Shown here: in pieces, positions 4,844 through 56,505 of the stretch | Layout: each line of letters starts with the position of its first letter | How positions within the stretch are numbered: position 1 is the stretch's first letter | Origin: Octopus vulgaris | Lineage: Eukaryota | Assembly (NCBI GenBank): GCA_951406725.2 | Contig: OX597840.1 | Coordinates: 3,720,001 to 3,784,000 of the forward strand | Direction: 5' to 3' | Length of the DNA stretch: 64,000 bases | Notes under the pieces: generated by a model | Told to the model about the DNA's origin: nothing | Database searches by the model: none | Seen by the model: only the letters and a program-made list of their open reading frames with translations | Made by a program: the position numbers and the translations under genes

Positions 4844-5052
4844 ATCCAAACATGAAAGCACAAAAGAAACACAACAACGCGAGGACGTGGAACAAATATA
4901 GTATTATTGGACGTTCAGTAAAGAACGAAAGAAGGAGGGTTTAACGTTTCGAGCGGAGCTCTTCGTCGGGAACATAGGAGAAGGAAAGATCCAGAGAAGG
5001 GAAGACAGAAGAAAAAAAATCGCCAACGGTACACACGCGGTCACATTTTGAA
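4839..5052 (-). mobile_element. (TA)n-flanked short HHR-bearing element, family H1 (Penelope pLTR/retrozyme-like)
   Basis: Near-identical to 26579-26786 and related to 40595-40771; TA repeats on both sides. Confidence 0.75.
4939..4973 (-). ncRNA. Minimal hammerhead ribozyme-like motif (U4C core variant)
   Basis: Minus strand GUUC CCGACGA A GAGC-UCC-GCUC GAA ACGU U AAAC. Confidence 0.65.
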
Positions 5053-5922
5053 CATATATATATACGACGAGCTTCTTTCAGTTTCCGTCTACCAAATCCA
5101 CTCTCAAGGCTTTGGTCGGCCCGACGCTTGCCCAAGAAAAAGAAACACACTATCCCATCCAAAAATACATAAAAGTTATTATTTATTTTTTTTTCATTAA
5201 AGAATATCAACAAGATTATGGTTGGGGCGATAACAGTGTATTCGAAGTAGCTACTCATACATATATATGTGTGTGTATGTGTGTATTCATGTGTGTGTGT
5301 ATCTGTATCTGAGTGTGGTGTGTGTGTGCGTGTGAGTATGTCTTTGTGTGTGTGCGCGTGAGCGGGTGGGTGCGTGTGTGTGTGTGAATACGGGTGTGTA
5401 AACGTATACAGAATTAAGTATACATAACATTCTTCCGGACTGTTTCCGTGTACGAAGTTCTGATCGAACAATAATGTTCTACCCGAAGCTGTCGTGGAAA
5501 ACATCTGCTGTTACAAGAGAAACATGAATCCAGGGGATGAGAAACACACACATACACACACAAACACATGAGGATGTTTCTTTGCAAATTTAATACAAAT
5601 GATAAACTGTAATGAAAAACTCAATATTTCTTAACAAGAACAAATAAAAATTTATGCGTGTTTGTGTGTATATAATATTTATAGAGGATACATAATGATT
5701 TTCGAGAAATTAACTCGAGGAAACCTCTTTTCCGGTGTAAGCAAATTATGTGTGCATGTATATATATAATCAAAATAAGCAACAGGGATGTCCAGAGGTA
5801 ATGCAGTACGATCGTTTCATGCAACTCCATTTAATTGAACAATGGAATCATTACCCCAATTTAAAATGCAGAGCAATCCTCAGCTTCACAAAACTATGGA
5901 ATTTAATTAAATTAGAACAGAT

Positions 5923-7537: not shown

Positions 7538-7923
7538 AGTGTAGATTTAAACACAAGAGAAATTACCTTTAACAGGTAATTTTACACTAGAAGAAGCAGT
7601 CAAAACGACCGAAACCACATTTGAGAGCAATTTCGAAGGAAATGGAAAATAAAAACTTTTACCTTGTTATATTTTTACGGTTATACCTAGGTTTCAAATT
7701 TTTTTAGCAAATAAAATAATTAACCAGGCGAAATTCTCATCAGTAACCGCGGCATAACACTAACATATAATTTAGAGACAAATAACATGTGTCTCATCAT
7801 TATATGTTATAATTTTTCAAATTCAAATTGCGCTTAAATGTGGTTTCGGTCGTTTAGACTGCTTCTTCTGGCGTGTAAAATTACCTGTTAAAGGTACTTT
7901 CTCTTGTGTTTAAATGTACGCTA
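7538..7923. repeat. Inverted repeat (~96-bp arms, 7538-7633 and 7825-7923), each arm with a degenerate HHR-like motif, between (TA)n tracts
   Basis: Arms are reverse complements with few mismatches; each contains AGAAGAAGCAGTC..GACCGAAAC. Confidence 0.8.
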
Positions 7924-9993: not shown

Positions 9994-10700
9994 CCACACA
10001 TATATATGCATACATATATAAGTATTTTTGTATGTATGCACATATATGTGTGTGTGTGCAAGTAGGATGGAGAGGTTCTGTGAGACGTTGTACAAACCTT
10101 ATTGCACCTCAAACGTTAGATTGTGCAATCGCCGGCGAGATAACTATCCGCTGCCCGCACGAATAGGAGTACATGGCAGCGAGCATAGTAACCGCGGGTG
10201 CAATAACCTCTTGCACGAACATTGCTGACATTTTGCATGGTCCATAGTTAGTGATGGTCTTTCTGGGTCACGGATAGACAGTCTGATGTCGATCCATAGG
10301 TCTGTCTGTCTATAGGCATGAATATCATTTTTTTAAATTTTCATCTAGTTTCAGCTCACGAGCTGTGGCCATGCTGGGGCACCGCCATTATTCAGTTTTT
10401 TTCCCAAAATTCTTTGCCAATAGAGAAAGAGCCAGTTTATAATCCAGACCAAAGGTTTCTTCATTGGAATTTCAACATCAACAGGGTGTTTTTGTATGTA
10501 TGCATGTATGTATGAATGGATGGATGGATGGATTAATGGATGGATGGATTGATGGATGGATGGATTGATGGATGGATGGATTAATGGATGGATGGATTGA
10601 TGGATGGATGGATTGATGGATGGATCTGTGCAGATATATATGTTTTGTTTCATGTATGTATTCTCATGCATATAGTTTCATATCTAGACATGCTCATATA

Positions 10701-14505: not shown

Positions 14506-14545
<40 letters not shown>

Positions 14546-14567
14546 GTACCAGTTACGCACCAGGGTC

Positions 14568-14619
<52 letters not shown>

Positions 14620-14772
14620 GACCCTGGTGCGTAACTGGTACTTAATTTATCGACCCCGAAAGGTTGAAAGGCAAAGTCGCCCTCGACGGAATTTGAACTC
14701 AGAACATGACTGCAGACGAAATAGCGATAAGCATTTTGCCTGGCATACTAACGATTCTGCCAGCTCACCACC
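14620..14772 (-). mobile_element. Meta/MESC-domain SINE family D, 3'-truncated at (TA)n
   Basis: Contains GCCTTTCAACCTTTCGGGGTCGATAAATTAAGTACCAG on minus strand. Confidence 0.8.
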
Positions 14773-20464: not shown

Positions 20465-20535
20465 ACAAAAGACGAAGACAGGTGGTGTACAAAACAAACA
20501 GATGTATTAGTATAACGCTCAGGAATGGAAAAAGT

Positions 20536-20571
20536 CTTTTACGTTTCGAGCCTACTCTCTTCTACAGAAAG
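20536..20571 (-). ncRNA. Minimal HHR-like motif, family H2 (CUGUNGA core)
   Basis: Minus strand CUUU CUGUAGA A GAG-AGUAGG-CUC GAA ACGU A AAAG; element ~20465-20607 abuts (TA)n. Confidence 0.6.
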
Positions 20572-20605
20572 AGATACAGAAAAAAAACAAGGAGAGAAAC
20601 AAGGA

Positions 20606-26575: not shown

Positions 26576-26787
26576 CATAGTTGATCCAAACATGAAAACA
26601 CAAAGAGAGAGCACAACAACGCGAGGACGTGGAACAAATATAGTATCATTGGACGCTCAGGAAAGAAGGAGGGTTTAACGTTTCGAGCGGAGCTCTTCGT
26701 CGGAAACATAGAAGAAGGAAAGATCCAGAGAAGGGAAGACAAAGGGAAAAAAATCGCCAACGGTACACACGCGGTCACATTTTCAAT

Positions 26788-28804: not shown

Positions 28805-29097
28805 GGAGGCGCAATGGCCAAGTGGTTAGGGCAGCGGACTCGCGGTCGGAGGATCGCGGTTTCGATTCCCAGACCGGGCGTTGTGTGTGTTTATTGAGCT
28901 CCACGAGTCTCCGGTAGGGGTTGGTGATCCCTGCTGTACTCTTTCACCACTCTTTCTCCCACGCTTTCTTCTGTTGGCCTGCTCGCTTAACCAGCGGGGT
29001 GGCGTCGTTCGAAGGCTATAAAAACAATGCGAACGCATTGTGACCAGCGATGTGTAGCAACATCTGATGGTCTGGTCGGTCATGTGATCATGTGATA
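28805..29097 (+). mobile_element. SINE family A head with an alternative tail
   Basis: Head as at 1727 and 8292; tail ends CATGTGATCATGTGA. Confidence 0.85.
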
Positions 29098-29142
29098 TAC
29101 ACTTATATATGTATGTATGTTTGTATTTTTGTATAGATATAT

Positions 29143-33117: not shown

Positions 33118-33478
33118 TACATTGTAGACTATGCTATGCTATATACCCATAACATAATGAACTATACATATATAATATATTGTACTACACGTGTGTGTGT
33201 GTGTGTGTGTGTATTCTCTTGTATGCGAATGCGCACACGCATCTGCGTGTGTTTCTCTTTACGTTAATTTACGCTAATCACCTTGCGAACAATGATACGC
33301 CTTATACAATAAATCATTTTCACGCCTTTCAATGCAACATTGGTTAACGTAGGAAGTAAGCAACCCATTATTAATCACGACATCAGTAACGAATTCATCG
33401 CTTTTCTTTCTGCCGGTGGTGATACGGACTCGGGAGTATAATGTATGTATTGTTCATACAGCAAAATACCAGTAATAC

Positions 33479-33895
33479 CTATTTCTTTACTACCCACAAG
33501 GAGCTAAACACAGAGGGGACAAACAAGGACAGACACACGGATTGAGTCGATTAGATCGACTCCAGTGCGTAACTGGTACTTAATTTATCGACCCCGAAGG
33601 GATGAAAGGCAAAGTCGACCTCGGCGTAATTTGAACTCAGAACGTAACGGCTGATGAAATACCCATTTCTTTATTACCCACGAGGGGCTAAACACAGAGG
33701 GGACAAACAAGGACAGACATAGGTATTAAGTAGATTATATCGACCCCAGTGCGTAACTGGTACTTAATTTATCAACCCCGAATGGATGAAAGGCAAAGTC
33801 GACCTCGGCGTAATTTGAACTCAGAACGTAACGGCTGACGAAATACCGCTAAGCATTTCGCCCGTCGTGCTAACGATTCTGCCAGCTCGCCGCCT
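33479..33895 (-). mobile_element. SINE family D tandem dimer with 14-bp TSD
   Basis: Two ~183-bp units under one head; AATACCAGTAATAC at 33465-33478 and 33896-33909. Confidence 0.88.
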
Positions 33896-34404: not shown

Positions 34405-35002
34405 CAGCGAGCTGGCAGAAAGGTTAGCACGCAGGGCGAAATGCTTAGCAGTATTTCGTCTGCTGCTACGAACTGAGTTCAAATTCCGCCGAGGTCGACT
34501 TTGCCTTTCATATTTTCGAGGTCGATTAAATAAGTGCCAGTTACGTACTGGGGCCGATATAACCGACTTAATTCGTTTCTCTGTCCTTGTTTGTCCTTTC
34601 TGCGTTTAGCCCCTTGTGGGTAGTAAAGAAATAGGTATTTCGTATGCCGTTACGTTCTGAGTTCAAATTCCGCCGAGGTCGACTTTGCCTTTCATCCTTT
34701 CGGGGTCGATAAATTAAGTACCAGTTACGCACTGGGGCCGATGTAATCGACTTAATCCCTTTGTCTGTCCTTGTTTGTCCTCCTGTGTTTAGCCCCTTGT
34801 GGGTAGTAAAGAAATAGGTATTTCGTCCGCCGTTACGTTCTGAGTTCAAATTCCGCCGAGGTCGACTTTGCCTTTCATCCTTTCGGGGTCGATAAATTAA
34901 GTACCAGTTTCGCACTGGGATCGATGTAATCGACTTAATCCCTTTGTCTGTCCTTATTTGTCCCCTCTGTATTTATCCCCTTGTGGGCAATAAAGAAATA
35001 AG
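34405..35002 (+). mobile_element. SINE family D tandem trimer with 17-bp TSD
   Basis: GTATTTC at 34451, 34635 and 34818; AGACACATATACACAGA at 34388-34404 and 35003-35019. Confidence 0.9.
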
Positions 35003-40594: not shown

Positions 40595-40771
40595 CTTGGC
40601 TATTTTTTTCATCCTCCTTCCTTTTCTTTTGGACTTTCCTATGTCTCCTGTTTCCGAAGAAGAGCTTTGCACGAAATGTAAAACAACCATTCTTCCTTTC
40701 CTTCTCTGAGCGTGTCTTATTAATACTTCGCATGTACCACGTCCTCGCGTTGTTAATTTTTCCTGTTGTCT
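40595..40771 (+). mobile_element. Solo H1 HHR-bearing element (motif at 40650-40684)
   Basis: GTTT CCGAAGA A GAGC TTT GCAC GAAATGTA AAAC; shares CTGAGCGT and CCACGTCCTCGCGTTGTT with 4839 and 26579; ends in (TA)n. Confidence 0.7.
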
Positions 40772-41785: not shown

Positions 41786-41974
41786 GCCATGATAGATCGT
41801 TAGTCACTACACACATTTTTTCTCTCCTTTTTTTCTCTCCTTGTTTTTTTCTGTCCCCTTTCTGTGGAAAAGCATAGGCTCGCGAAAGACTTTTTCAATT
41901 CCTGAGCGTTATACTAATATATCTGCTTGTTTTGTACAACACCTATTTTCGTCTTTTGTTTTTTTCGTGAACTC

Positions 41975-50432: not shown

Positions 50433-50547
<115 letters not shown>

Positions 50548-50619
50548 AGGTGGTGCTATTAAGTTAGACATGGCCTGGGCCAATAATGGCCGAAACCTAT
50601 CAAAGTATCAAAGTATATA

Positions 50620-50658
<39 letters not shown>

Positions 50659-50756
50659 TGTTTTAATACAGTTTTATATTTAAGAGATGATGTATTATTT
50701 ACATTATTTACATTATTTACTTTTGACGGATATTTGTTCTCATCTTGTTTGTTGTT

Positions 50757-50802
50757 AACACAACGTTTCGGCTGATGTACCCTCCAGCCTTCATCAGGTG
50801 TC
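50757..50802 (-). ncRNA. Minimal type-I hammerhead ribozyme, canonical core
   Basis: GACAC CUGAUGA A GGCUG-GAGGGUACAU-CAGCC GAA ACGU U GUGUU: 5-bp stem I, 5-bp stem II, palindromic ACGU stem III. Confidence 0.8.
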
Positions 50803-51083
50803 TCGGAGAAATTTTGAACCCGGGTTCTCATTGTGACTAACGCTAACACTAACTGATAGTGTGGCCGGTAACGTGATCGCGTAATACATACATACATACA
50901 TACATACATACATACATACATACATACATACATACATACATACATACATGAAGGAGCCTTGGATCTAGGTTAGAAACCGGCTCTTTCATTATTGGCAAGA
51001 AATCTTAAAATAAAACTGAACACATACATACGTACATGGATGGATAGTAAGGGAAACCGACAAAAAAGGGGGAGACAGGTAGG

Positions 51084-52152: not shown

Positions 52153-52188
52153 CTTTCTGTCGAAGAGCATAAGCTCGAAACGTCAAAG
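52153..52188 (+). ncRNA. Minimal HHR-like motif, family H2
   Basis: CUUU CUGUCGA A GAGC-AUAA-GCUC GAA ACGU C AAAG; perfect stems, GUC triplet; element ~52130-52285 ends at (TA)n. Confidence 0.7.
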
Positions 52189-53321: not shown

Positions 53322-53669
53322 CCTTTTTCAAGTGTGTCTGATTACAAATCTTTCCTCCTCTACCTTGATCACCGACTAAAGAAACACCTTTTCACACTTC
53401 CTTTCCACTGCTTCCAACCTTCTATTAAGCTTTCCCTACTAATTTTCAAAAACACATGGTTCTCTAACCACGTTTCCTTTGTCAGTCACTGCCTCGCCAC
53501 CACCTCATTCCCAAAGGTCTCCGCCTCCATTTCCACCCCCACTTTCCACTCTGTTTCTGCCATTTACCCATACTCAGTACTACTTCCTACCGCCTTATGC
53601 GTTCCACTATTCGTTCCATAGTTTGCTTCCTACTACATTTATTCTCACTCTGTTGATTTCCTCGTGATC

Positions 53670-53705
53670 CTTTCTGTTGAAGAGCGTAGGCTCGAAACGT
53701 AAAAT
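53670..53705 (+). ncRNA. Minimal HHR-like motif, family H2
   Basis: CUUU CUGUUGA A GAGC-GUAG-GCUC GAA ACGU A AAA; inside a ~470-bp block (53320-53793) between microsatellites. Confidence 0.65.
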
Positions 53706-53813
53706 ACTTTCTCACCTTCCCGAGTCAAACTAATACACCTGCTTGTTGTTTATACACATGTCTTCGTCTTTTATTTTTCTGTAAATTTCAACTATACGCA
53801 CACACACACACAC

Positions 53814-55289: not shown

Positions 55290-56505
55290 TCAAGTTGAGT
55301 AAAAAGTAAGCAAGGTTTTGAACCATGAAGAATTTGGATCGATCTTTTGCAGAGTTTAGAACTTTTTAAACATTTTTTAAAAAATTGTCTGATAATACAG
55401 ATATAAACTTGCTCAAAAGCACCAATAAATTAACATTGAATTAACATAGAATTTTTTTCACCGTTGTTATGATCATGTGAAATGGAACTGTCAAAGCGCA
55501 ATATTCGAGCAATTTTGCTATCCAACTTCTAAAAAGGACGTAAAGCAGCTGAAACTGTTCGCGATATCAACGAAACGTTTGGTGAGGAAATGACCAGTGA
55601 GTGGTTACCTCGAAAATGGTTTTCACACTTTTGCAGTGGAGACTTGAGCTTTGAAGATCGTGAGCGTAGTGGATGCACATCTGTCATCACTGACAGTCAA
55701 TTAAGGACCATCATCGAGAAAGATCCACATAAAACCACTCGAGAACTGACAAAAGAATTTAAAGTTAGCCAGAAAACTGCCTGTAACCATTTGCATGTGA
55801 TCGGAAAATCAAAAAAGCTAGACAAATCGATACCACATGATTTGAATGAAAATCAGAAAATGCGCAGGTATGAAATTTGCTCGTCGCTTCTTCTCTGTAA
55901 TCAGACAGATCCATTTCTCGATCGTATTGTAAGCTGCGATGAAAGTGGATTCTCTATAATAATGAAAAACGTTCTCCGCAGTGGTTGAACTAAAATAAAG
56001 TATCGAAAACCTTCTCTAAACCCGAGCTCTTCAAAATGAAGGTTATGGTGACTTTTTGGTGGTGCACCGCTGGAGTCATCCACAATAACTTCTTAAAATC
56101 CAGTAAAACCATTACTGCAGAAACATTGCTGTAAAATTGCTAAAATGAACAAAAAAATGCTACTCATCTATCCTAGACTGGTCAACAGAAAAGGGTCAAT
56201 CATTTTTCATAATGCTTGATCACACGTTTCACTAATGACGCTCCAGAAGTTGAGGGAACTTGGATACGAAGTTCTTCCCCACCTAGGTTATTCCCCAGAC
56301 CCTTCCCCTACTGACTACCACTTTTTCAAACACCTTGATGGTTTCCTGTGAGAGAAGGAGTTCAAAAAATCAACCCAATGCTGAAAGTGCATTTAAAGAG
56401 TTCATCAGCTCCAGAACTCCAGGTTTTTATGTTACTGGAATAAACAAGCTTGTAACACGTTGTCAAAAATGTGTTGATTGTAATGGCACTTACTTTGATG
56501 AATAA
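55290..56505 (+). mobile_element. Mariner transposon (Hsmar1/cecropia-like), decayed; 5' TIR present, 3' TIR not seen
   Basis: TA|TCAAGTTGAGTAAAAAGTAAGC TIR-like start after (TA)n; transposase pseudogene inside. Confidence 0.85.
55482..56505 (+). pseudogene. Mariner DD34D transposase pseudogene
   Basis: MELSKRNIRAILL..KGRKAAET; SIPHDL (WVPHEL-like); DRIVSCDE; YSPDPSPTDYHFFKHLD; GINKLVTRCQKCVDCNGTYFDE*; stops and frameshifts. Confidence 0.92.

Follow-up and report, generated by a model that had tools for sequence, protein, structure and literature searches.

Is the hammerhead motif at 50757..50802 an active ribozyme belonging to this locus, and what kind of element carries it? The window, that is, the whole 64-kb stretch of Octopus vulgaris DNA that was analysed, has this motif on its minus strand, and a preliminary description made from the letters of the window had presented it as the best-preserved canonical hammerhead and the prime candidate for activity. 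We found that it is a real hammerhead motif of a known kind, placed correctly by that description. The locus is very probably the 5′-truncated, 167-nt end of an old, abundant, protein-coding Penelope-like element (PLE) with a minimal hammerhead in its pseudo-LTR (pLTR), and is likely inert.

Results

A minimal hammerhead of the PLE type

The features of the locus, in window coordinates, are as follows.

50757..50802, minus strand: minimal type I hammerhead motif, from strand reading and motif scan; it fits the description of minimal hammerheads in the available text of PMC4209133
50666..50832, minus strand: 5′-truncated 3′ end of a PLE pLTR, of the "long" 3′ end class, without the tRNA-like head and (AAT)n tract of fuller copies
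50666..50831, minus strand: open frame from an ATG at 50831, the presumed start codon, across the entire hammerhead
50751..50764, minus strand: competing hairpin that takes in the cleavage triplet as well as the 3′ strand of stem I, predicted by folding and common to the family
50830..50884, plus strand: 3′ tail of a different tRNA-headed SINE, 80% to L032
50884..50949, plus strand: (TACA)n microsatellite after the SINE tail, from direct reading
50614..50658, no strand assigned: (TA)n microsatellite past the 3′ end of the element, from direct reading

On the minus strand, stem I is formed by GACAC (50802-50798) and GUGUU (50761-50757), 5 bp with a terminal G-U, and the core CUGAUGA occupies 50797-50791. 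Stem II pairs GGCUG (50789-50785) with CAGCC (50774-50770), 5 bp with a possible sixth G-U pair. GAAA is located at 50769-50766 and the ACGU palindrome at 50766-50763; this palindrome is the whole of stem III, which has no terminal loop. The cleavage triplet is GUU and the predicted cut lies at 50762/50761. This strand reading confirmed the core nucleotides, the two 5-bp stems and the GUU triplet listed in the preliminary description, and the same cut position was derived from the sequence.

An unpaired A at 50790 lies between A9 and G10.1, and the G10.1-C11.1 pair is G50789-C50770. According to the available text of PMC4209133, an unpaired nucleotide between 9 and 10.1 is a hallmark of PLE minimal hammerheads. 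The motif has the other characters of that class as well, namely the core CUGANGA/GAAA/UH, the G10.1-C11.1 pair, a palindromic loopless helix III and a helix I of 4-5 bp. Its place in a PLE pLTR was established through locus L167, which bears an ORF, and 20 ORF-end loci. Canonical metazoan type I hammerheads have a helix I of 6 bp, a helix II of 4 bp and a small-looped helix III, whereas here we found 5 bp, 5-6 bp and no loop. The term canonical was thus wrong, as the unpaired A50790 and the loopless stem III are those of the PLE minimal type. The earlier reasoning that a stem III of ACGU only would need two copies appears right for such a hammerhead.

Rfam gave zero hammerhead matches and three chance matches (E 1.1-8.8) in 225 nt around the motif; over the whole window, microsatellite-driven miRNA matches dominated among the matches listed. 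A relaxed hammerhead scan of the 64-kb window returned five matches, and only 50757..50802 combines an exact CUGANGA core with a loopless stem III. The rank of best-preserved therefore stood inside the window but not genome-wide, where the identical 46 nt occur 24 times, i.e. at 23 other loci. The pattern of intact core, stem II and ACGU was found 3,178 times in the 2.8-Gb genome and 0 times with the reversed control, indicating that it is above chance.

Other hammerhead-like motifs were seen in the window. A second repeat family has a minimal hammerhead-like motif at 20535-20572 (minus) and 52153-52188 (plus) whose core is off at one position (CUGUAGA / CUGUCGA); related pieces lie near 41824-41944 and 53642-53771, and relatives occur in 12 fetched loci. 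A third repeat family, at 26673-26707 (minus), has a CCGACGA core and a loopless ACGU stem III, with copies near 4850-5056 and 40596-40754. The hammerhead-like sequence at 7677-7750 (minus) has an exact core; its stem II is long and AU-rich, and a palindrome of 6 nt is inserted in stem III.

The element fragment and its surroundings

The fragment at 50666..50832 is 90-93% identical to the best other copies, and 93% identical over 124 nt to the 5′ repeat of L167. It begins just at the ATG, the head and the (AAT)n tract being missing. In L167 and L166, the frame of ATG 50831 extends into the N-terminal part of the PLE protein. The motif had been placed between (TA)n and (TACA)n; the (TA)n tract does lie a few nucleotides past the 3′ end, whereas a SINE tail of ~54 nt intervenes before the (TACA)n. 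This tail joins the PLE fragment head-to-head with a 3-nt overlap (50830-50832), and a relative of it is found at 29037-29099. No second copy of the hammerhead repeat was detected in the 64-kb window, no clear flank duplication was visible around 50666..50832, and no PLE ORF was found in the window by ORF list, tblastn or blastn.

Several other repeats were observed in the window. Short non-repetitive pieces between microsatellites at 50545-50612 and 50950-51025 (plus) resemble hammerhead-bearing element ends, and the latter has a 76% copy at 10391-10462. An abundant SINE-like repeat forms tandem arrays, with units of 183-184 bp, at 33474-33847 and 34451-35000. Inverted repeat arms of SINE-like sequence flank a (TA)23 tract at 14541-14646. 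A 151-aa frame at 55533-55988 (plus) presumably resembles a mariner transposase fragment.

The parent family is a coding PLE

Fuller copies extend upstream of the hammerhead segment with a tRNA-like head of 77 nt and an (AAT)n tract. There the ORF stop is followed, after about 30 nt, by the tRNA-like head, then by (AAT)n and the hammerhead-bearing segment, and the last part of this end repeat also encodes the start of the PLE ORF. L167 shows the arrangement around a coding region: repeat end, a frameshifted ORF of about 2.4 kb, head, (AAT)n and hammerhead segment. Its ORF matched RVT_1 in Pfam (E 5.8e-8) and another PLE ORF of the same genome at 29% (E 2e-34). With the Pfam GIY-YIG model, the C-terminal piece of L167 matched 0 families; PF26215 was present in 18 of 18 longer homologues. 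The C-terminal region of the L167 translation contains what we take to be GIY-YIG-like motifs. By resemblance, the family would fall in the Penelope/Poseidon clade, given the hammerhead over the ORF start, these GIY-YIG-like motifs and tblastn similarity.

Twenty loci were fetched by the ORF C-terminus (one of them the query locus); in all 20 the ORF is immediately followed by the head, and 16 of 20 also have part of the tail. Among the first 100 listed of 1,065 head matches, 13 continued upstream into common sequence; for the 3′ end, 3 of the first 100 listed (of 3,421) continued downstream into common sequence. The 150 ORF matches scored out of 4,903 candidates were 76-92% to the query, apart from the self-match, and contained many stops, the longest open frame being 569 aa. 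The PLE family is old and decayed, and an intact copy may exist beyond these 150.

Two other candidates for the coding partner were rejected. The route through Pfam GIY-YIG led to other PLE families; their 781-aa frames are intact and they have hammerhead variants of their own, and no common repeat was found next to the ORF. PLE fragments next to L026, L041, L049 and L138 were unrelated neighbours or insertion targets. L087-L091 (e.g. G000:C16:20835000-20841500) represent a young PLE family in which many 781-aa frames are intact; it has a long promoter-like repeat and, near the 3′ end, a hammerhead variant whose core, as read by eye, is of the U3-A8 type. That family is the likelier place for live PLE activity in this genome. 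LINE fragments, which we presume to be R4/Dong-like, adjoin or sit within (AAT)n tracts of the family studied here at L003, L022, L025 and L095, which suggests that the tract is their target.

Copies decay without visible selection on the ribozyme

The 225-nt neighbourhood of the motif gave 3,724 first-look candidates, and among the 40 scored the best other copies aligned only query positions 53 to about 220, at 90-93%. We estimate the family at roughly 50,000 copies, with a wide margin. Decay was followed in 63 hammerhead-spanning copies from loci picked by 3′ end, head or ORF, and not on the ribozyme. The intact core/stem II/ACGU pattern was retained in 4/63 and the core with ACGU-H in 13/63. 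At non-CpG positions these copies diverged by 0.080 (core), 0.097 (stem II), 0.034 (GAAA) and 0.057-0.065 (flanks). The CpG of the palindrome diverged most (0.34), and by a crude measure, summed depth in contigs of the large run, the same two palindrome CpG positions were changed in about 31% and 29%. Hence no selection on the ribozyme is visible in the decay of the copies, and ACGU is a CpG hotspot. Because the decay is neutral, an intact core is not a sign of activity. The intactness of 50757..50802 is the luck of neutral decay, and the flagged copy is an ordinary one, a single fossil among an estimated tens of thousands.

Predicted folding and ribozyme activity

The bare 46-mer was more stable than 195 of 200 shuffles (z −2.14); in 91- and 141-nt contexts the motif folded no better than shuffles. 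The four inner pairs of stem I had predicted probabilities of 0.96-0.99 in the bare 46-mer versus 0.02-0.03 in the 168-nt native context, in which a hairpin across the cut site was predicted at 0.93-0.95. Median values for 45 intact copies were 0.91 for the competing hairpin versus 0.04 for stem I. In its native context the cut site is therefore predicted to be masked by the competing hairpin. As folding models ignore co-transcriptional folding and protein help, the mask may be bypassed, and in the parent RNA masking would fit a switch assisted by protein. The hammerhead of Poseidon_Ac cleaves only with its protein, according to the available text (PMC11167929). With two bare 46-mers, the active strand-swapped dimer was computed at −22.3 kcal/mol, two monomers at −29.2 and the most stable inactive cofold at −32.2; the active dimer is thus not predicted to be the lowest-energy form. 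At the inverted pair L007 the hammerhead was predicted to lie entirely inside a long duplex.

These results bear on whether the ribozyme of this locus is active or host-exapted, acting in trans with another copy to cleave a read-through transcript. The core nucleotides are all intact, GUU is an accepted NUH site (PMC3138052, available part), and the thousands of intact copies would be possible trans partners. Against this, there is no selection signal on the core across copies, the copy has neither a head nor a neighbouring copy, and both the masking hairpin and the dimer energies predicted above argue for an inactive state. In the portions of the sources available, published minimal hammerheads cleave weakly even as dimers (PMC4209133), and RNA-seq ends were not found at the Poseidon_Ac site (PMC11167929). 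We consider an active ribozyme here very unlikely. With thousands of copies equally intact, and on the same grounds, the motif's standing as the prime candidate for activity is unsupported. Weak cleavage may well be seen with an excised dimer, but it would be a property of the family, not of the locus.

Insertion signature

The 3′ ends of copies are bimodal, at about 138-161 or 183-188 on a 188-nt tail reference. They cluster 40-90 nt downstream of the cut site and not at it, indicating that uncut RNA was copied. Head-to-head pairs were present in 58 of 100 loci. Sixty pairs comprised 53 long+short, 4 short+short and 3 long+long combinations; choosing the 100 loci for high identity, an intact ribozyme or the long 3′ end makes one long member inevitable in many pairs, so what carries information is that long ends are almost always partnered by short ones. 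Outer-flank duplications of at least 8 nt were found in 41/60 pairs versus 66/3,536 mismatched controls. The hallmarks of PLE insertion were present, namely a pLTR partial tandem, an inverted 5′-truncated copy and a 30-40 bp tail. For Poseidon_Ac, the available text describes two reverse transcription start sites, a 30-40 bp tail, both-strand nicking and a dispensable, protein-assisted hammerhead (PMC11167929). By analogy, the long/short pairs and flank duplications would fit both-strand nicking with two internal reverse transcription starts (PMC11167929; PMC8557442, as far as their available parts go).

The same ends and pairs speak to another origin, in which the locus would be a monomer of a non-LTR retrozyme that spread via small circular RNAs from double hammerhead cleavage. 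The full repeat, about 300-350 nt, is within the retrozyme size range (PMC7229834), and a pLTR origin of retrozymes has been proposed (bioRxiv 10.64898/2026.07.22.740005), both taken from the accessible portions. However, head-to-tail tandem hammerhead units, which define retrozymes, were not found in the window, same-strand hammerhead copies lay within 600 nt of each other in only 2/100 loci, and the 3′ ends do not coincide with the cut site. This origin is extremely improbable, and we return to the truncated PLE end.

A further hint was seen at L017:1492-1667, where contigs of two guessed-RNA runs had 4-5 A>G and 6 T>C sites each and the large run had nearly none. This is the pattern expected of A-to-I editing on transcribed inverted pairs; a third guessed RNA run was without it, and individuals differ.

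The tRNA-like head and possible Pol III transcription

A- and B-box motifs of the head were matched by pattern in 2/4 loci; the window copy lacks them. With relaxed settings, ARAGORN recognised the head in 2/8 loci, alongside spurious calls. As a tRNA, the head was recovered in 0/9 default ARAGORN runs and 0/2 Rfam scans. Its cloverleaf is degenerate. The tRNA that it resembles we take to be tRNA-Arg. In 100 loci there were 79 head-containing matches; 42 ended at −12..+5 of the first base of the head, 7 at −13..−40 and 1 further upstream. This pile-up reflects either a transcription start or a strong reverse transcription stop at the short palindrome there. An origin of that palindrome from fold-back only was dropped, since part of it is present in the parent sequence.

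The sense strand of the L167 ORF has zero TTTT runs in 2,370 nt versus 3.0 expected (P 0.027 with dinucleotide shuffles, P 0.017 with triplet shuffles). In 23.9 kb of aligned copies, five runs were found versus 17 expected, all at different positions; since the copies share one ancestor, the depletion amounts to one modest test. No depletion was seen in three other PLE ORFs and an R4-like ORF, and two fragments of a headless, more similar PLE, a weak control, had 4 runs versus 6 expected. The boxes, the 5′ pile-up and the scarcity of TTTT suggest that the whole element may have been transcribed by Pol III.

A stand-alone SINE was our first reading, dropped once head and tail were shown to be the end repeat of a coding element. 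A weaker form is that the short copies are a separate, non-autonomous SINE with tRNA head and hammerhead tail, mobilised by the PLE and amplified from Pol III transcripts, the window copy being a truncated one. The pile-up at the head start would be expected, the A and B box motifs are present, and 87 of 100 listed head matches do not extend into the ORF end. Yet a tRNA-derived SINE is non-autonomous and separate from a coding element, whereas the head followed the ORF in all 20 ORF-end loci, and a separate SINE-only subfamily would be putative. Reverse transcription that began internally in the 5′ repeat of the full RNA would yield the same short copies (PMC11167929, available text). A separate SINE is rather unlikely. 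It and the PLE end repeat are not exclusive, as solo repeats with an intact head could have been SINE source genes. The PLE end repeat is the reading carried forward below.

Discussion

We propose the following course for the family. The protein of the element would nick both DNA strands about 9-14 bp apart, and reverse transcription would start past the uncut hammerhead, on its downstream side, at two internal positions separated by about 35 nt. Short copies would result, as would back-to-back pairs in which one end is long and the other short. By default, the competing hairpin would hold the hammerhead of the parent RNA in the off state; cleavage would require a dimer in which two ACGU palindromes pair, probably with protein assistance, and the cut would part the presumed start codon from the remaining ORF. 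At the family level, and less securely, the tRNA-like head may have acted as an internal Pol III promoter fixing the 5′ end of the RNA. The window copy would then have lost its head and have no partner, its core being kept by chance.

A further scenario is tentative. The parent might have been an autonomous PLE with a captured tRNA-derived promoter, transcribed end to end by Pol III into an RNA of ~2.7 kb from which TTTT terminators had been purged; the uncapped RNA would have been translated, and the hammerhead would have been able to remove the start codon. Solo repeats would then be ready-made SINEs, a route from PLE to SINE. If true, a tRNA-type Pol III promoter would here drive a protein-coding retroelement, no case of which was found in the literature searched, and the family would be a model for SINE origin from PLE end repeats. 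In the accessible portions of the literature on PLEs, SINEs, pLTRs, Pol III promoters and octopus hammerheads, no PLE with a tRNA-type head was found. The words "hammerhead" and "ribozyme" are absent from the available main text of the 2026 octopus repeat annotation (PMC13282606).

The family is thus of more interest than the flagged copy. Thousands of dated inverted long+short insertions with flank duplications form a natural data set, one that supports priming on two strands during PLE integration, and the use of uncut RNA as template bears on the purpose of PLE hammerheads.

Comparisons with known systems are limited to the available parts of the sources. The locus shares with PLE minimal hammerheads the full core, the unpaired nucleotide 9/10.1, the G10.1-C11.1 pair, a 5-bp helix I and the palindromic loopless helix III, and these, like the copies of this family, are mostly lone motifs within truncated PLEs or close pairs on opposite strands (PMC4209133). 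Helix II, known here from sequence, is 5-6 bp, in contrast to 7-8 bp in the Schistosoma families (PMC4209133). Poseidon_Ac of Anolis carolinensis (Frangieh et al. 2024) also has a hammerhead over the ORF start, two 3′ end classes defined by the tail, and copies of uncut RNA, and its cut falls downstream of the presumed start codon (PMC11167929). Its cut site is 26 bp after the start codon, whereas the octopus family has the whole hammerhead inside the presumed reading frame; the octopus repeat also opens with a tRNA-like head and (AAT)n, which the available text on Poseidon_Ac does not describe, and the octopus family is decayed (PMC11167929).

The schistosome SINE-like repeats Sm-alpha and Sj-alpha share a Pol III-type promoter upstream of a hammerhead and a dispersed distribution, but they are non-coding and often tandem, while the octopus head and hammerhead form the end repeat of a coding PLE in solo or inverted copies (PMC6765202). 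Helenus, Ajax and Cassandra likewise have small-RNA-derived sequence within a retroelement terminal repeat; they are non-autonomous LTR elements bearing tRNA or 5S sequence, in contrast to the ORF-bearing octopus PLE with its hammerhead (PMC10886601). In the portions available, these schistosome Pol III SINE-like repeats and tRNA/5S-bearing LTR elements are the closest precedents for the combination of head and hammerhead (PMC6765202; PMC10886601), and the tRNA-like head makes the parent family a variant of known PLEs.
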